Positions 17,961 to 22,682 of a stretch of 33,821 nucleotides of DNA are shown in pieces (position 1 is the stretch's first letter; every line of letters starts with the position of its first letter). The DNA comes from Acidimicrobiia bacterium. Lineage in GTDB: Bacteria; Actinomycetota; Acidimicrobiia; Spongiisociales; UBA5794. The notes beneath the pieces were generated by a model. That model searched no databases, was not told where the DNA came from, and worked only from the letters and a program-made list of their open reading frames with translations. Made by a program: the position numbers and the translations under genes. The stretch is taken from the NCBI GenBank assembly GCA_030066715.1, contig JASJBC010000045.1, forward strand, positions 1 through 33,821, in the 5' to 3' direction.

Positions 17961-19013
17961 TCAGCTGGGGACTGGTCTTGCGTCGAGCCAGCGGATCCCC
18001 GCAAGCACCCGACCGCTGTAGTCGTTCCGCAGTGCGAGTTTCCGGCCCGCGTCCGGTGGAGTCCTGACGGCACCCGCCCAGCCGATCATCCCCCGGATCT
18101 GTATGCGGAGTGCCAGCGCCGCGGTCCGGGTTATCTCGTCGAGGCCCGCATCTACGCCGTAGCGCTGTAGCGATGACGCGTATCTTGCGAGAAGTTGGTC
18201 GGGATCGATCGGAGCGTCGTTGCGGAAGGCAAGGCTGACCAAGAGCACTGCGACGTCAACCGCAGGCGGCCCGATCGCTGCGCCCGACCAGTCGAGCAGT
18301 ACCGGACTGCCGTCGGCTCGCCACAGTATGTTGTCGAGGTGCGGGTCTCGATGCACCCACGACGCCGGCCCGAGCGCCAACACCTGAATCGCGGCGGTTG
18401 CCTCGTCGCTGCAGGCGGCCAGTCGTTCGACGATTTGCGCTGTGTAGTGATCCGGATATCGCTCGCGGGCCTTCTCGAGACGGTTGCTCCACCGTTCCGG
18501 TGCCCAGGCGGCAGCGGACCATCGGTCGAGTTCGATAGGGGCATCGGAAGCGGCGTCAAACCAGGTGGTGGCGTGGAGGCGGGCGACGATGTCGATCAGG
18601 TCTAGGGCTTGGGCAAGTGTGCAGCCGGCCAGGTCGTCGCCTTGCGTGGCTTGCGGGATGTCCTCCAAGAGGATCACTCCCTGGCCCTGGGAGTCGAGGT
18701 ACGACCCGTATGAGGCCGGAATCACGCCGGCGAGCAGTCGCTCGTTGTGAGCCCGGAAGGTGACGGCGCGCCGTATCTCGTCCTCAGCTTCGATCTTGGC
18801 TACGAGCGTCGGGGTGGCCCCGGCAATGGTCGGGGCGAAGAGCCGGTAGACGCGACCGCTGAGACCGAACTCGCCGCCGATCCGCTCGCCCCGCACCGAC
18901 GCCACTGTCCCGTCGGTCCAGACACGTGAGCGTTCGAGCTGGGTGTTCAGCCAATCGACGTCGAACTCGTTGCCGTCGCTGGGAAATCGCATGGGTGGAG
19001 TCTGGTCGCGCAC
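17961..19013 (-). CDS. Phosphotransferase (APH/choline-kinase-like) family protein
   Basis: 350 aa. Brenner motif VHRDPHLDNILW (HxDxxxxN) and downstream DW (LLDWSGAAIGPPAVD), characteristic of PF01636 aminoglycoside/small-molecule kinases. Substrate unknown. Confidence 0.7.
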   Translation of the reverse strand: MRDQTPPMRFPSDGNEFDVDWLNTQLERSRVWTDGTVASVRGERIGGEFGLSGRVYRLFAPTIAGATPTLVAKIEAEDEIRRAVTFRAHNERLLAGVIPASYGSYLDSQGQGVILLEDIPQATQGDDLAGCTLAQALDLIDIVARLHATTWFDAASDAPIELDRWSAAAWAPERWSNRLEKARERYPDHYTAQIVERLAACSDEATAAIQVLALGPASWVHRDPHLDNILWRADGSPVLLDWSGAAIGPPAVDVAVLLVSLAFRNDAPIDPDQLLARYASSLQRYGVDAGLDEITRTAALALRIQIRGMIGWAGAVRTPPDAGRKLALRNDYSGRVLAGIRWLDARPVPS

Positions 19014-19060
19014 CGGTCACCATGCGAGCGGGGACGCGGAGGTGCTGCTCAAGGCCCATG

Positions 19061-19090
19061 CGGCCATCTTCCCGACGTATCCTTCCAGAT
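19061..19090. repeat. Copy 1 of a 30-35-bp dispersed direct repeat (GCGGCCATCTTCCCGACGTATCCTTCCAGAT)
   Basis: Identical at all but 2 positions to copy 2 (20209-20240), and closely similar to copy 3 (20897-20925). Lies in the 98-bp gap between the HEPN stop and the phosphotransferase start, at the boundary where GC content drops. Confidence 0.55.
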
Positions 19091-19111
19091 CTAGGTGGTT
19101 CATTGAGGGAG

Positions 19112-19516
19112 TCAGGCCTGGGCTGCCAGTTCAAGGAGACGCTGCATGGCGCGGATTGCTCGTTTCGCTTCTGTCACCGTTGGGTCGGTTTGCTCGTACT
19201 GCGCCTTGTTCTTTGCGGACAGCAGAGTCGCTAGCTCCCTTCTCGCAGACGTCCCAAGGTCGCCCGCCTGGCCGAGCAGGTCCAAGGCCTGTTGATGGTC
19301 ACTTCCGGCAGCGCGCTGTCCAAGGCGTCGACAGCAGATCGCGTCGGCAGCGGCGATGCCGGCCAGCACGGCATTGCTAACCGCTGCCGACCTCGCTGGC
19401 CCGTCTGATGCGAAGGGATCCAATTCGGCTAGTTCGGCGAACGCTTTGGCCTGTTGATGCCTCTGCGCACCGTCTTGCCGATCGCAACGCCTGGTACGGG
19501 ACGTCTTCTTGGCCAT
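19112..19516 (-). CDS. Putative HEPN-domain protein (toxin partner of the upstream nucleotidyltransferase)
   Basis: 134 aa, all-helical, with conserved-looking R/H positions. Its start overlaps the stop of the upstream wHTH-NTase gene by 1 nt, the classic MNT-HEPN operon order. No canonical Rx4-6H motif is obvious, so the family call is tentative. Confidence 0.5.
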   Translation of the reverse strand: MAKKTSRTRRCDRQDGAQRHQQAKAFAELAELDPFASDGPARSAAVSNAVLAGIAAADAICCRRLGQRAAGSDHQQALDLLGQAGDLGTSARRELATLLSAKNKAQYEQTDPTVTEAKRAIRAMQRLLELAAQA

Positions 19517-20106
19517 CAGGTGTTGTCCGTCGCCACGAGGTCGATACGTTCCGCTTCGATGCTGGCAAAGAGGCTCGGAGATGTTTCTGCTAATCGCTCG
19601 AACTCACTCGTCGTGTAGTGAAGCAGGTTGCATTCGTTGCCTGTCAGCCGGTTGATCCGCGGCGCAATGTCCTGCTCTCGCTCCCTCGAGGATGCGTCGT
19701 CACTCCAGACGAGCACGATGTCGATGTCGCTCTCCTCGTTGGCCGAGTTGGTTGCGAGGGATCCAAAGAGGATTGCCTGCCGAACTGTTGGAGCTTCCTC
19801 GACAATGATTGCTCCCATAGCGTCCAGAAGCTGTCTCCTCAGATCCACGATCTGTAGCACGAACGGCGCGAGTATGTGTTCTCTGTTCAAGGTGTTGAGC
19901 ACAGCGTTACCTGCTGTGACCTGGGTAACCAAGCCGTGTGCCGCAAGTTCGTCCAGAGCGTTCTGCACGCCCTGCTGGCTCACTCTTCGGTGGGCGAGTC
20001 GCATGACTTCACGCCCAGACAAGGGCTTGGTTGTACCCGCGAGGACCTCAAGTACTCGACCGGCGAGACTCGGGATGAGCGAGGTAAGGGGATGGCGGAG
20101 GTTCAT
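19516..20106 (-). CDS. wHTH-fused minimal nucleotidyltransferase (MNT/MntA-like antitoxin)
   Basis: 196 aa. N-terminal winged-helix (…LSGREVMRLAHRRVSQQGVQNALDELAAHGLV…). Polymerase-beta-type NTase motif ILFGSLATNSANEESDIDIVLV (GS-x9-13-DxD). GC about 55%, versus about 68% in flanking genes. Confidence 0.7.
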   Translation of the reverse strand: MNLRHPLTSLIPSLAGRVLEVLAGTTKPLSGREVMRLAHRRVSQQGVQNALDELAAHGLVTQVTAGNAVLNTLNREHILAPFVLQIVDLRRQLLDAMGAIIVEEAPTVRQAILFGSLATNSANEESDIDIVLVWSDDASSREREQDIAPRINRLTGNECNLLHYTTSEFERLAETSPSLFASIEAERIDLVATDNT

Positions 20107-20153
20107 ATGCCAAGCATAGTTGGCATATGACCATTTGAATAGGCATTTGCCAA
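20104..20153. promoter_or_regulatory. Cluster of TTGGCA/TGCCAA inverted half-sites overlapping the MNT start codon (candidate autoregulatory TA operator)
   Basis: CATATGCCAA-gcatag-TTGGCATATG is a perfect 10-bp inverted repeat that includes the ATG. A third site …GGCATTTGCCAA follows 20 nt further upstream, preceded by TTGACT-like -35 sequence on the minus strand. Confidence 0.35.
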
Positions 20154-20208
20154 CTCAGCTAGTCAATCTACTGCCAGGAACGTCGGCTACCACACCTCGG
20201 CGCCCGTG

Positions 20209-20240
20209 CCGCCATCTTCCCGACATATCCTTCCGGATTG
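20209..20240. repeat. Copy 2 of the dispersed direct repeat (GCCGCCATCTTCCCGACATATCCTTCCGGATT)
   Basis: See copy 1. Located between the TA module and the zinc-ribbon membrane protein gene. Confidence 0.55.
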
Positions 20241-20386
20241 CGGTGGTGGGATGAGGGCAGACGGGACGGGCAACTGACGCGTGGACCATTGCAGAGGGAG
20301 CCTTGTTCCTGGTGCGTCATTCTGATATGTCTGCAGTGGCAACTGTCGGGCTGCCACGCGGCTGGCAGACCCGGGGAAAGGACTTC

Positions 20387-20800
20387 ATGACTGATCCCGT
20401 TGTCGTGTGCTGGAGCTGCCACACCAATGTGGACGCGGGTCTTTCTGAGTGTCCTCGCTGCAGGGCAGGGCTAGGGCCTGAAGATCGTGGATTGAGCGTC
20501 GGGGACCACCAGAGTGAGCAAGAGCTCTTGAAGGCTAGGTCGGGGGTCGGCGATTCATCCGTAGCGAACCATGTAGGAACCGAGCGACCATTCGAGAAGA
20601 TAGTGATTGGTTGCATCATCGTCTTGCTGATGGTTGGTGGGGGCACGTTTCTCGGCATGTTGTTCGCGGGCTGGATAAGTGGTTGTGAATCCTTCGGTTG
20701 TCTTGCTCCCGCCGCGATTGGTGTGTTCCTCGGAGGTGCTGTTGGTCTTGTGTGGAGCATCACCATCCTGGTCCGCAGGAACTCCCGCCGAGCCAAGTAG
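20387..20800 (+). CDS. Small zinc-ribbon membrane protein (CxxC-x14-CxxC + 2 TM), function unknown
   Basis: Start chosen at ATG 20387 (MTDPVVVCWSCHTNVDAGLSECPRCRAGL…), preceded by GGAAAGGA RBS. C-terminal two hydrophobic helices (IVIGCIIVLLMVGGGTFLGMLFAGWI…AAIGVFLGGAVGLVWSITILV). Basic tail RRNSRRAK. GC about 57%. Confidence 0.5.
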   Translation: MTDPVVVCWSCHTNVDAGLSECPRCRAGLGPEDRGLSVGDHQSEQELLKARSGVGDSSVANHVGTERPFEKIVIGCIIVLLMVGGGTFLGMLFAGWISGCESFGCLAPAAIGVFLGGAVGLVWSITILVRRNSRRAK

Positions 20801-20896
20801 TGCCGGCGCCTGAGTTAGGCAGATGGTGGAAGCGGCGGTCTGTGCAACCGACGGCGGGTTTCCTGGATGAGAGTCTCCGGGTTCTCAAGCACCAGT

Positions 20897-20925
20897 GACC
20901 TTCCCGGCATATCCTTCCAGATTGG
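20897..20925. repeat. Copy 3 (more diverged) of the dispersed direct repeat (GACCTTCCCGGCATATCCTTCCAGATTGG)
   Basis: Shares the CTTCCCGRCRTATCCTTCCRGAT core with copies 1 and 2. Marks the right edge of the lower-GC segment. Confidence 0.45.
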
Positions 20926-21084
20926 GGTCGCGGTCTAGCGAGGTGTCCGCTCGCTGAAGCCGGATAATGAGCGCCGGTGGGTGCGCGATATCGCTCCCGG
21001 CCGTGAGTGCTTGGGTACCGGATCAAGCGCTAAGGACTGCGAGGTGGCCACGGCTCCGTTCCCGTGCGAGCCTGCGTAGCGCCG

Positions 21085-22005
21085 CTACTGGTCCTCATCC
21101 AGCTTGCTGAAGGCGGTTGCGACCCGCTCGAGAAACCACCGCACCCCTGGCTCGTCCCCTTCCGCCGCGCTGCGGAACAGCGAAAGCCCCATGGGGGGAA
21201 GGTCGAAGGGTATCTCGCGATGGTCGAGGTGAAAGGCGATCGCTGTGTTGCCTATGGCCACCGACGGCACGGTGAGCAACAGGTCCGTCTGGGCGAGTAT
21301 CGGCGCGGCCATAGAGAAGGTAGGAACCATGGCCCCTACTACACGGCGAATGCCGAGCTGAGAGGCCCGCCGGTCGATTGGGCTTCGCCCGCGAACGCCT
21401 GACGTGTGAACCCGCAGGTGGGGGTAGTCCGACCACGCCTCCGCGGACCAGTCGGCGAAGGCCGGGTGGCCTTCGCGGCCGTACACGGCCCAGGGCCAAG
21501 TCCCCAGCGGCTGACCACGTAGGTCCTCATCCCGGATGCCATCGGGCGCGATGAGGGCGTCGTAGCGGCCCTCGGCTAGCTCCCGAACCGCTGTTGCGGA
21601 GTAGGGCGCCAGCTCGACGCGGATCCCGGGTGCTGCATTCCTCACGTCCTGCAGCAGTGCCGGCACGAGTGAGGCGATGAAGTCGGGTGCAGCCAGACGG
21701 AACGTGCGGGTCGATGTGGTGGGTTCGAAGGGCTCCGGAGTCGCGATCGTGCGCGCCACTTGCTGGAGCACCCGGGGCAGTGTTTCCGCTAATCCCTCGG
21801 CGCGAACGGTTGGGCGCATGCGCCGCCCGTCCCGGAGTAACAGTTCGTCGTCGAACAGTTCGCGGAGGCGCTTGAGGGCGTGGCTGACGGCGGATGGGGT
21901 GAGGTCGAGCCTTTCCGCGGCACCGGTGACGCTTCGCTCCTCCAGCAACACATCGAGGACGACGAGCAGGTTGAGGTCAACCTCTCGTAATTGAATATCA
22001 TTCAT
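21085..22005 (-). CDS. LysR-family transcriptional regulator
   Basis: 306 aa. N-terminal HTH (…LNLLVVLDVLLEERSVTGAAERLDLTPSAVSHALKRLRE…). C-terminal periplasmic-binding-protein-like effector domain. Divergently arranged with a small membrane protein gene. Confidence 0.85.
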   Translation of the reverse strand: MNDIQLREVDLNLLVVLDVLLEERSVTGAAERLDLTPSAVSHALKRLRELFDDELLLRDGRRMRPTVRAEGLAETLPRVLQQVARTIATPEPFEPTTSTRTFRLAAPDFIASLVPALLQDVRNAAPGIRVELAPYSATAVRELAEGRYDALIAPDGIRDEDLRGQPLGTWPWAVYGREGHPAFADWSAEAWSDYPHLRVHTSGVRGRSPIDRRASQLGIRRVVGAMVPTFSMAAPILAQTDLLLTVPSVAIGNTAIAFHLDHREIPFDLPPMGLSLFRSAAEGDEPGVRWFLERVATAFSKLDEDQ

Positions 22006-22011
22006 ACTTTA

Positions 22012-22033
22012 TGAATCCATGTTATTTGATTCA
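22012..22033. promoter_or_regulatory. Candidate LysR-type binding site (inverted repeat TGAATC-N10-GATTCA) in the divergent promoter region
   Basis: Lies in the AT-rich 87-bp interval between the LysR start (22005) and the divergent ORF (22093). The inverted repeat has the T-N11-A-like geometry of LTTR boxes. Confidence 0.35.
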
Positions 22034-22092
22034 CAGTATAGGCCTGAGTATCTTCTGCGCCCTAACTCGATACTGAGCAAGGAGACAACAGC

Positions 22093-22542
22093 ATGTTCGA
22101 GAGGTTCAAGAACTCACCGATACCAATCTGGGTGAACGTATTCCTGATCGTGACCGTGCTGCTCATGGCCGTGCAGGTGTTTTGGAATTACTTCGATCAC
22201 CAATACCTCTTGGATGCAGGCATAACGATCGGGGGCGACCCTGACAAGAATGTCCTGTACACAACGGCAGGACGACTGGTGGCGATGATCGGTGCGTCGA
22301 TCTTCGTTCTGATTACTCAGAATCCAGCTCAACATGCCGTCGTGTGGTTCATGAGCATCCTTCGTGAAGGCCAGGAGATGTTCATTGACCCGCTATTCCC
22401 ATATGCGAATAGCCCAGCCGCGCCGATAGCCGATTTCGGGATTCATGTCGTGATCGTTGCGCTCGAGATAGCGGCGTTCGTAACTGTGTACAGAATCTGG
22501 AGGCAGGAGCGGAGTAGCGCACCTGCGAGTGCTCTGACATAG
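22093..22542 (+). CDS. Hypothetical small membrane protein (about 4 TM), compositionally atypical (about 50% GC)
   Basis: 149 aa with 4 predicted hydrophobic helices. AGGAGA RBS (caaGGAGAcaacagcATG). GC content about 15-18 points below its neighbours. Divergent from the LysR gene. Confidence 0.5.
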
Positions 22543-22682
22543 CCCTTCAGATCTGGGCGATCTCGCCTGACCTCTTCCGTTCCTGCGTTGCTGCTGCCGA
22601 AATGTCGGCCTCATCAACGCCAGAACGCCGGCGCCCCCGGCCTTCCTGCGGACGGGATCGCCGGCACAGGTACGATGTCCGG

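Follow-up and report, generated by a model that had tools for sequence, protein, structure and literature searches.

A Repeated 58-nt Block in Acidimicrobiia Chromosomes Probably Serves as the Recombination Site for Arrays of Mobile Gene Cassettes

Introduction

What are the short direct repeats that bound and subdivide a 1.9-kb segment of lowered GC content in an Acidimicrobiia chromosome, and do the genes between them represent discrete mobile units? The question was raised by a sequence-only reading of the 33.8-kb stretch of DNA analyzed here (hereafter, the window), in which the layout was likened to gene cassettes punctuated by a recombination or regulatory element. The textbook system for assembling arrays of single-gene cassettes is the integron, and it is, to our knowledge, practically the only one that is well understood. 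According to our analysis, the repeats are probably recombination sites at the borders of mobile gene cassettes, which form arrays in the chromosomes of Acidimicrobiia; these arrays are integron-like without the integron site type or integrase.

Results

Repeat Copies and Gene Units of the Window

The repeat core, CTTCCCGRCRTATCCTTCCRGAT, was found at positions 19068, 20216, and 20900, on the plus strand in all three cases, and 100 dinucleotide-preserving shuffles gave no match with up to three mismatches, compared with three in the window itself. The three direct copies reported by the sequence-only reading are thus genuine. The positions assigned to them cover only the inner part of the actual elements, which comprise two 58-nt blocks and a third of 54 nt (Table 1). 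The description of copies 1 and 2 as near-identical was overstated, with an identity of 76% across the 58-nt block and 80% across 56 nt, and copy 3, described as more diverged, is a short form. The spacing is irregular, as had been noted, with core start-to-start distances of 1148 and 684 bp (the latter previously given as 686 bp). A CRISPR array, already dismissed by the earlier reading, would have a regular period and spacers of 25–50 bp, whereas the copies of the family are 298–2919 bp apart and the units between them contain genes.

Table 1. Position and characteristics of the features in the repeat-bounded segment of the window and in its flanks.
Feature	Position	Strand	Characteristics
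APH-family kinase gene	17961..18992	-	Left chromosomal flank, outside the element; Pfam; places the contig in an Acidimicrobiia MAG
Unit 1	19049..20196	+	Block 1, two-gene NTase/HEPN-like pair, degenerate 3′ half-site
Block copy 1	19049..19106	+	58 nt; nhmmer 43.8 bits; 76% identity to family consensus
HEPN-like partner, 134 aa	19112..19516	-	R-x5-H motif RAAGSDH in translation
Winged-helix + nucleotidyltransferase (MNT-type), 196 aa	19516..20106	-	Pfam Polbeta/NTP_transf_2/MarR_2
Unit 2	20197..20884	+	Block 2, zinc-ribbon membrane protein gene
Block copy 2	20197..20254	+	58 nt; nhmmer 60.6 bits; 84% identity to family consensus
Zinc-ribbon membrane protein, 137 aa	20387..20800	+	CxxC...CxxC and two hydrophobic helices, read from sequence
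Block copy 3	20885..20938	+	Short form; nhmmer 42.5 bits; ends in TAG
LysR-family regulator gene	21085..22005	-	Right chromosomal flank, outside the element; Pfam

Copy 1 has the layout TCAAGGCC...core...ATC TAG..TGA, and its crossover heptamer is degenerate (CAAGGCC vs. CAGCGCC in the consensus). Copy 2, with the heptamer CGGCGCC, is the best preserved of the three. In copy 3, which forms the end of the two-unit array of the window, the left arm is 4–5 nt shorter (...CAGTGAC-CTTCCCG); the same short form is located upstream of DUF222 genes elsewhere. The limits of both units were set by a unit model derived from relatives (shared units and insertion polymorphism), and the degenerate 3′ half-site of unit 1 is represented by an AGGAACG box at about 20176–20182.

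The GC content of units 1 and 2 (0.590 and 0.600) is lower than that of the flanks (0.645 and 0.673) and of the whole contig (0.643); the reported dip (about 55–60% vs. about 68% in the flanks) is therefore real but smaller than claimed. The codon usage of these particular proteins had been named as a possible sole cause of the dip. The dip is also observed at third codon positions (GC3 of 0.63–0.68 in the cargo genes vs. 0.72–0.84 in adjacent genes) and so is not explained by amino-acid composition alone. The array-bearing relatives described below have a GC content of 0.59–0.63, which the units of the window match. No close relative of the window contig was present in the searched collections; the nearest homologues of the kinase are 57% identical, and their gene neighbourhoods differ.

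In unit 1, the 196-aa protein, the stop codon of which overlaps the start of the gene for its 134-aa partner, is an MNT-type nucleotidyltransferase according to Pfam (Polbeta, 1e-9; NTP_transf_2, 1e-7; both above cutoffs). It also matched PADLOC PDC-M05A (9e-17), as well as NCBIfam MntA at 6e-9 and 35.8 bits, which is under the 60-bit cutoff. These matches to Pfam and PADLOC confirm the winged-helix nucleotidyltransferase predicted by the sequence-only reading. The HEPN identity predicted for the partner is plausible, considering its R-x5-H motif and a weak match to PADLOC PDC-M05B (E = 7e-3); Pfam and NCBIfam searches with this protein gave no match. The gene pair appears similar to toxin–antitoxin (TA) or defence-type modules; in HEPN-MNT (type VII) TA pairs, with which it was compared, the HEPN partner has an R-x4-6-H motif. 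For the 137-aa protein of unit 2, the open reading frame of which has a possible alternative start at 20303, no family match was obtained in Pfam, NCBIfam, or PADLOC.

The Repeat Family and Its Arrays in Relatives

The repeats of the window belong to a family with at least 87 further copies in 37 related loci, found in Acidimicrobiia-type MAGs and metagenomes. In every locus, all copies lie on one strand. The units between blocks (n = 46, median 708 bp) mostly consist of a single gene, and their cargo is of accessory type. The sequence-only reading had named, as an outcome that would refute it, a common promoter or operator element upstream of core genes; in the related genomes the motif instead delimits accessory-gene units. 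Relative to the block, 27 cargo genes are co-oriented and 21 opposite. As this orientation is unbiased, the units must carry their own promoters. The arrays occupy chromosomally unrelated positions, namely beside arg genes, dcw genes, clpC, and the kinase and LysR genes.

Several matches were not accepted as members. Exact 23-mer matches in MAGs of Hungatella, Acidaminococcaceae, and Thermodesulfobacteriota (L002, L005, and L011) were attributed to chance, their flanks being unrelated, and the single match on a viral contig lies inside a phage gene; the main form of the site was found on no viral contig. Profile, pattern, and de novo repeat searches revealed no internal blocks in loci L052 and L053.

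Anatomy of the Block

The conserved block of the repeat, 58 nt long, is sharply bounded on both sides and follows a semi-conserved half-site. Conservation begins abruptly at -19, where entropy falls from about 1.6 to 0.25 bits, and stops abruptly 58 nt further on. A fixed exchange point predicts such edges, which would not be expected of homologous recombination at arbitrary positions within the block. The 3′ half-site of the units consists of GGGAAGAyCC and about 12 variable nt, and, the units being arranged head-to-tail, each junction comprises the 3′ half of one unit followed by the block of the next. The crossover heptamer is located close to the dyad axis that relates GGGAAGAT, part of the left half, to the complementary ATCTTCCC of the block. 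Length variants of the block differ by 5 nt.

What is conserved in the site is sequence and not structure. RNA folding of the repeat, proposed earlier as a check, gave a negative outcome: RNAalifold found no consensus structure on either strand, and fold stability barely differed from that of shuffles (z = -0.45 and -0.15). A covarying stem between the variable flanks, convincing by eye, was rejected by the same program and by a test of own-arm against other-arm duplexes (p = 0.2–0.86). An opposite-strand micro-ORF (MSGRWRQRR followed by a stop) was also rejected, as its ATG is not conserved in the copies of the window and residue changes on that strand are radical.

Evidence That Units Move

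The block moves with the cargo on its right-hand side, and the left context differs between shared copies. Thus, L003:1196 is identical to L012:2633 starting exactly at TCAGC, and L020:2213 equals L022:1417, a unit common to two contexts. Recurrent units in different arrays and genomes include those for an AlaDH-like protein, MarR with DJ-1, and a 173-aa protein. For some shared units, the end does not coincide with a junction: the similarity of L003 and L036 stops about 31 nt short of it, and L003 carries a truncated gene fragment. Other rearrangements therefore also act.

The most direct evidence is an insertion polymorphism between two metagenomic contigs (L009 and L036) of a diverged block subfamily, which are 96–98% identical except that L036 carries an additional 3.5-kb unit, containing two MscS genes, inserted exactly at the left edge of a block. 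The empty site of L009 reads GGCACCC TCAGCGCC ACTGACC...; in L036, the left junction is ...GGCACCC TCAGCGCC CCTGTTCG..., and the right junction is ...GGAGGGCCC CAGCGCC ACTGACC.... The exchange was mapped to (T)CAGCGCC. Both properties expected of a discrete mobile cassette, namely the reuse of units in different contexts and insertion at the site, are therefore present in the family, and the presence/absence evidence comes from the relatives and not from the two units of the window itself. In this respect, the cassette layout proposed by the sequence-only reading is supported, and so is the variable presence of units that it had named as a check.

Candidate Enzymes

No recombinase domain was detected among the genes of the window, Pfam searches included. 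A search for a recombinase near other copies had been proposed; the 386 kb of the 37 array-bearing loci yielded no recurrent recombinase family, whether IntI, another tyrosine recombinase, or other, except a resolvase-like protein at one locus type, and no array was found to adjoin an integrase. The resolvase-like protein (144–179 aa) exceeds the Pfam Resolvase cutoff (35–43 bits). In all three loci of this type, it occupies the left end of the variable region beside the dcw genes. It has no DNA-binding domain. Because it matches no solved recombinase and is absent from all other array loci, it was rejected as the general enzyme. One conserved array locus is flanked by this small protein and by a small HNH protein.

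A single protein family recurs at the arrays, namely DUF222, which here carries an HNH motif at its C-terminus. In six loci, the array terminates at a DUF222-HNH gene carrying the short-form site, and the same site is present with DUF222-HNH homologues on four further contigs. In one DUF222 clade, the short site is located 70–90 nt upstream of the start codon in 9 of 10 genes; a DUF222 gene from another lineage (L045) is without the site. As a possible second element end, the crossover motif in inverted form, GGCGCTGA, was considered on the downstream side of DUF222 and discarded, since its frequency (5 of 11) did not differ significantly from the background of 21%.

DUF222-HNH proteins, the REP13E12 family, occur in abundance in Actinobacteria, with Mycobacterium tuberculosis among them; since 1999, no function is known to have been established for this family. 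The mycobacterial DUF222/13E12 family has been described as a multi-copy repeated element with an unknown mechanism and as a source of variability (PMC10589994). In the literature, we encountered no report connecting DUF222 with cassette arrays or with a defined site. As a tentative scenario, which we consider doubtful as a whole, the DUF222-HNH gene at the array terminus behind a short “attI-like” site could define the platform of a cassette-capture system in Acidimicrobiia, analogous to the integron and built from different parts, perhaps together with the small resolvase-like and small HNH proteins; the block of such a system may carry a translated or termination-sensing tail.

Discussion

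Proposed Mechanism and Its Significance

A unit comprises the 58-nt block at its 5′ end (in the orientation of the repeat), one or a few accessory genes in either orientation, and the 3′ half-site, and we propose that DNA exchange occurs in the 7–8 bp of (T)CAGCGCC at the left edge of the block. A unit, presumably in the form of an excised circle, would recombine with a resident site and so join the array, most simply by conservative site-specific recombination, with the enzyme acting in trans. Neither a circular intermediate nor an excision product was observed among our data. In the window, two such units were probably inserted between the kinase and LysR genes of an Acidimicrobiia chromosome, and their sites have since decayed in the crossover heptamer. 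Due to this decay, the array is probably a fixed remnant, and its repeat copies are probably fossils.

The defined exchange region of 7–8 bp provides a tractable site for finding the enzyme, and a concrete, testable role is offered for DUF222-HNH proteins. In addition, the block may be used as a sequence tag to pull accessory-gene cassettes from sediment and marine metagenomes.

Alternative Explanations

A model in which the block is purely a DNA site leaves one feature unexplained, as the block terminates in a conserved in-frame stop codon. The first stop is at a common codon in 40 of 58 unique tails; the two bases after its fixed T are AG in 29 copies, GA in a further 13, and AA or GG in none. 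Second codon positions are nearly invariant T or Y, so that the encoded peptide would read Q-[IVLF]-x-V-[AV]-x-stop, and entropy leaps to about 1.9 bits immediately past the stop. The diverged subfamily retains the tail through synonymous changes (ATC GGG GTA GCT GCC TAG). The final six codons thus behave as coding sequence, and a plus-strand hairpin, TGCCGCCATCTT/GAGGTGGTGGCG, with G.U pairs folds in many copies. This may suggest that the repeat is a cis-acting expression element (a small ORF or leader peptide, a structured RNA, or an operator) carried by each accessory module, with the arrays representing a flexible genomic island where modules accumulate by other means. However, a start codon is absent, the frame is continuous neither upstream of the block nor across the 5-nt length variants, and the tail peptide was found in no protein among 5.8 billion clusters. 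The hairpin barely exceeds shuffles in stability (z = -0.45) and shows no covariation, and the choice of TAG or TGA is unrelated to the sequence of the left arm (Fisher p = 1.0). No Rfam family was matched at E <= 1, and promoter and terminator signals were not found. Furthermore, an expression element would be expected neither to have cargo in either orientation nor to account for the sharp left edge and the insertion junctions. We therefore regard this explanation as unlikely, although an expression role and a recombination-site role are compatible and could coexist.

The tail also resembles the conserved 3′ end of a gene with its stop codon, as would be expected if the repeats had arisen by duplication of part of an integration target, such as the 3′ end of a gene or of an RNA gene, with islands integrating one after another at a single att site and each incoming element restoring the target; direct repeats separating cargo modules that have no integrases of their own would fit this origin as well. 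Nevertheless, no tRNA or tmRNA is present in the window, no predicted protein in the above clusters contains or ends in the tail peptide, and neither a real ORF in the frame of the tail nor anything long or coding-like precedes any of the copies. Considering also that the arrays occur at several unrelated chromosomal positions with no adjoining integrase, such an origin seems very unlikely.

Even less probable, in our opinion, is that a small non-autonomous mobile element of the MITE/REP type, an analogy drawn by the sequence-only reading, landed in intergenic spaces of a variable region. The repeat is indeed short, non-coding, multi-copy, and intergenic, with the internal inverted repeat described above. 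Against this, all copies of a locus share a single strand, and the block edges, formed by the crossover heptamer and the stop codon, have no terminal inverted repeats or target-site duplications. Moreover, the block stays with its right-hand cargo, and the mapped insertion consists of 3.5 kb of cargo with one block and not of the block alone.

The least probable explanation, namely canonical attC sites in a CALIN (an attC cluster that has no integrase of its own) produced by an IntI from another part of the genome, would agree with same-strand sites between single-gene units, their reuse in different arrays, and the TA-type and small membrane-protein cargo typical of such arrays, but the RYYYAAC...GTTRRRY pair (40–150 nt, either strand) occurs in 1 of 84 elements, exactly as in 1 of 84 random segments (in line with the earlier remark that canonical attC core sites are missing), the centre of the site is highly conserved and non-palindromic with no variable hairpin, attC cassettes are mostly co-oriented and promoterless, and neither the array loci nor the window revealed the enzyme.

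Comparison With Known Systems

Our preferred reading, that of recombination sites delimiting mobile cassettes, brings the arrays close to several known systems. Sites of the dif type are 28 bp long (11-6-11) and flank modules in inverted orientation. The Xer pdif modules of Acinetobacter plasmids are similar to the present units in their small cargo, short sites, and an enzyme encoded elsewhere, whereas the sites described here comprise about 58 nt plus a half-site and are all direct. Additive flexible genomic islands with direct att repeats have been described in marine Actinomarinales (PMC7771536). These islands and tycheposons also have direct att-type repeats between cargo modules, many of which are without an integrase of their own; their repeat, however, is a tRNA gene fragment and their enzyme a tyrosine integrase, in contrast to the repeat of Acidimicrobiia, which matches no tRNA, RNA family, or protein and occurs at several loci.

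In behaviour, the arrays are like integrons and CALINs, one of the two analogies offered by the sequence-only reading. Shared features are short units (median about 0.7 kb), mostly with one gene, joined head-to-tail in chromosomal arrays; a same-strand recombination site at each boundary, with the crossover at one site edge producing hybrid junctions; units reused across arrays, with accessory, TA, or defence-type cargo; and arrays that may have no adjacent enzyme gene. The differences concern the parts. The site is a conserved non-palindromic 58-nt sequence without R″/R′ boxes or a covarying stem, and most of it lies at the 5′ end of the unit, whereas attC is mostly located at the 3′ end of its cassette. 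Instead of beginning with intI/attI, the arrays terminate at a DUF222-HNH gene. In other phyla, CALINs commonly occur with no IntI close by, which would favor an attC origin; complete integrons, on the other hand, were absent from all Actinobacteria surveyed, which speaks against it (PMC4889954). Membership of the integron family is thus not supported. The family shows integron-like genomic behaviour with a different site and no IntI, and, if this is confirmed, cassette capture evolved more than once.

The repeats of the window

The core CTTCCCGRCRTATCCTTCCRGAT occurs in three copies on the + strand of the window, all of them intergenic and, according to the repeat finder, 1148 and 684 bp apart from start to start; dinucleotide-preserving shuffles of the window gave no match to it with up to three mismatches permitted. 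The same-strand direct repeats described in the sequence-only reading are therefore real, and the lower-GC island that it drew around them was borne out: the repeat-bounded segment has a GC content of 59–60%, against 64.5–67% in the flanks, and the third codon positions of its genes are likewise below those of the flanks. Searches of the window for tRNAs, for Rfam families (with the threshold relaxed to E <= 1) and for signals resembling promoters or terminators found none.

Table. Features of the window and of related loci (L handles: related loci or contigs from MAGs and metagenomes)
Feature	Sequence	Coordinates	Strand	Remarks
APH-family kinase gene	window	17961-18992	-	
Core copy 1	window	19068 (start)	+	between kinase gene and 134-aa ORF
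134-aa ORF	window	19112-19516	-	
Winged-helix nucleotidyltransferase (NTase) gene	window	19516-20106	-	
NTase stop/partner start overlap	window	19513-19516	-	19516 shared
Core copy 2	window	20216 (start)	+	between NTase and zinc-ribbon genes
Zinc-ribbon membrane protein gene	window	20387-20800	+	
Core copy 3	window	20900 (start)	+	between zinc-ribbon and LysR genes
Array-closing block (copy 3)	window	20885-20938	+	short form
LysR gene	window	21085-22005	-	
Unit 1	window	19049-20196		NTase/HEPN-like pair
Unit 2	window	20197-20884		zinc-ribbon membrane protein
Second GC dip	window	21800-22600		
149-aa membrane protein gene	window	22093-22542	+	
Truncated GNAT-like fragment	L003	1286-1529		
Stretch shared with L009	L003	1530-2619		
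Stretch shared with L003	L009	6912-8000		
Palindrome at DUF222 start	L008	1699-1714		
Mosaic block	L019	2987-3073	-	
Lone block	L026	3483-3555		
113-aa ORF	L026	3758-4099	-	
Resolvase-domain/HNH pair	L049	872-3281		divergent genes
Resolvase-domain/HNH pair	L052	5937-7076		divergent genes
Resolvase-domain/HNH pair	L053	1341-2331		divergent genes

A second, deeper GC dip (0.49–0.56; 0.551 across the interval) spans the LysR upstream region and the gene for a multi-pass membrane protein with no match in Pfam or NCBIfam; no block copies flank it.

The repeat family

When one genome per species was scanned, the exact core with conserved flanks was found in eight stretches, from MAGs labelled Gemmatimonadales, Acidimicrobiia or "bacterium"; three more exact matches had unrelated flanks and were dismissed as chance. 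Metagenomes added 29 loci, and a profile made from the aligned copies to detect family members recovers 87 copies across 37 loci plus the window. Within every locus all copies share a single strand, and the GC content of all loci is 59–64%. The window is itself an entire contig (33,821 bp) from an Acidimicrobiia MAG. Little weight should be put on the phylum labels, since the stretch shared by L003 and L009 is 95.7% identical in nucleotides between MAGs labelled Gemmatimonadales and Acidimicrobiia, respectively, both of ~60% GC: this reflects either an error in the binning or labelling of a contig or a recent transfer of the cassette.

The conserved block (consensus TCAGCGCCGCTGCCGCCAT-CTTCCCGACATATCCTTCC-AGATTGAGGTGGTGGCGTAG) has two sharp edges. 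Per-position entropy falls from ~1.6 to 0.25 bits at position -19 from the core, the T of TCAGCGCC, and 58 nt later rises to ~1.9 bits directly past a conserved stop codon. Upstream of ~12 variable nt that adjoin the block, slightly more than half of the copies carry GGGAAGA(y)CC, the reverse complement of ATCTTCCC within the block, and the dyad axis, as read from the sequence, sits in TCAGCGCC. A shorter form (...CAGCGCCGCTGA-CCTTCCCG...) includes copy 3 of the window.

In the frame ...TTC CAG ATx, the first stop falls at the same codon in 40 of 58 unique tails and one or two codons later in 10 more; a fixed T is followed by AG (29 copies) or GA (13 copies), never by AA or GG. In the codons before it, which spell Q-[IVLF]-x-V-[AV]-x, most of the variation is at third positions, and a diverged subfamily retains the tail via synonymous changes. 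The frame lacks a start codon and is not maintained between the length variants, the block is preceded by no real ORF, and no protein among 5.8 billion clusters contains the tail peptide. A + strand hairpin, with neither thermodynamic nor covariation support, accounts for part of the purine/pyrimidine tolerance but not for the stop. The tail and its stop appear to form a module whose conservation does not depend on the remainder of the block. One mosaic block (in L019) joins a short-form left arm, a GATGGTGGTTC segment of the kind typical of DUF222-proximal sites and a main-form tail, CAG GTC GAG GTG GTG GGC TAG, the frame of which differs from that of the left part.

The 46 units between consecutive copies measure 298–2919 bp (median 708) and are mostly single-gene, with 27 cargo genes co-oriented with the block and 21 opposite. 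The cargo is of accessory type: LysE exporter, XRE and MarR regulators, DJ-1, GNAT, luciferase-like monooxygenase, beta-lactamase fold, AlaDH-like protein, MscS channels, SnoaL and GH25. Beside a lone block in L026, a 113-aa ORF looks, by eye, like a PemK/MazF-type toxin, which would add TA-type cargo.

Movement of the units

Two contigs from one MAG (L003 and L012) have 327 bp in common at 97.9% identity, starting exactly at TCAGC, with unrelated sequences to the left; L020 and L022 show the same pattern. The block thus belongs with the cargo to its right. Units with the AlaDH-like protein, with MarR+DJ-1 and with a 173-aa protein were each found in different arrays or genomes. Furthermore, L009 and L036 are 96–98% identical across >5.8 kb, and L036 has 3.5 kb extra, with two MscS genes. 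The empty site in L009 reads GGCACCC-TCAGCGCC-ACTGACCTTCCCGCG; the occupied left and right junctions in L036 read GGCACCC-TCAGCGCC-CCTGTTCGAACCTTCCCGC and GGAGGGCCC-CAGCGCC-ACTGACCTTCCCGCG. The insert therefore carries its own block and terminates in its own 3' half, and the exchange lies within the shared (T)CAGCGCC, the precise start of family-wide conservation.

Homologous recombination within the 58-nt repeat would not give the sharp left edge. A fixed exchange point does explain it, which leads us to read the system as one in which cassettes move by conservative site-specific recombination; we infer this step, as no circular intermediate was seen. Of the recombination or regulatory element that was suggested to punctuate gene cassettes, the recombination reading is thus supported by the loci of relatives. 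A GNAT-like gene, intact in L012, is truncated between block and AlaDH-like cargo in L003, so deletions too remodel arrays and some boundaries are not clean junctions.

The most likely reading of the island in the window is a remnant of this cassette system, two units long, set between the kinase and LysR genes. Across the full block its copies are 76–84% identical to the family consensus. With degenerate crossover heptamers (CAAGGCC, CGGCGCC and CAAGCAC versus the consensus CAGCGCC) and no enzyme gene for the system on the contig, the units have probably lost their mobility. As for the HEPN/wHTH-NTase pair proposed from sequence, the NTase was confirmed (PADLOC PDC-M05A, 9e-17) and the HEPN-like partner matched PDC-M05B at no better than 7e-3. 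The NTase stop overlaps the start of the partner gene; translational coupling of this kind is typical of TA operons with two genes. The only other contig encoding an identical NTase (L001, Logan SRR23318455, 2097 bp) corresponds to window about 18128-20224 and ends within block copy 2, an assembly break of the sort expected where a junction is multi-copy or variable.

Genes associated with the arrays

All-against-all clustering of ORFs from array loci, performed as a candidate enzyme search, revealed one family recurring across otherwise unrelated loci: DUF222 proteins of ~420 aa with an intact HNH motif. In six loci the gene shares the strand of the blocks and terminates the array on its 3' side, with housekeeping genes beyond it, and a short-form site including the left half and heptamer precedes its likely ATG by ~70–90 nt. 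Among five further homologues, selected solely by identity (67–52%) and contig size, the short site precedes the gene in four (weakly in one of these), a multi-block array including the MarR+DJ-1 unit occurs in one, and all five lie upstream of a mraZ-rsmH-ftsL-PBP-mur cluster. Internal blocks were not detectable in L052 and L053, and the site is missing from a DUF222 gene of a different lineage. In 10/10 DUF222 genes of this clade (L008, L019, L020, L031, L032, L049–L053), including that of L053, which is without the site, the ATG lies within a perfect 16-nt palindrome, TCGAAC(A/G)T-ATGTTCGA; this palindrome looks like an operator covering the start codon and might serve autoregulation.

In the three of these five homologues' loci that have a complete left flank, the variable region that precedes the dcw cluster starts, after MoxR/DUF58/TgpA genes, with a Resolvase-domain protein (144–179 aa) and a small HNH_5 protein (139–162 aa, 68–88% conserved), the latter also found at the left edge of one further locus. 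The former exceeds the Pfam cutoff and consists of the catalytic domain only, without a DNA-binding domain; it has no match among solved recombinases and is encoded at no other array locus. At its N-terminus, GYIREAS stands in place of the Y-x-R-V-S-T of serine recombinases.

Comparison with known systems

The system is not a canonical integron. The repeat had been described as unlike canonical attC, and indeed RYYYAAC...GTTRRRY boxes occur at blocks as often as in random segments (1/84 each); neither strand of the site showed a consensus or covarying structure. Unlike in canonical integrons, the block forms the 5' end of its unit and cargo orientation is unbiased. No integrase was found in the window, and none recurs across loci. 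Complete integrons were found in no Actinobacteria genome by Cury et al. (PMC4889954). The tRNA-targeted additive islands known from Actinomarinales (PMC7771536) are a different system from the present arrays.
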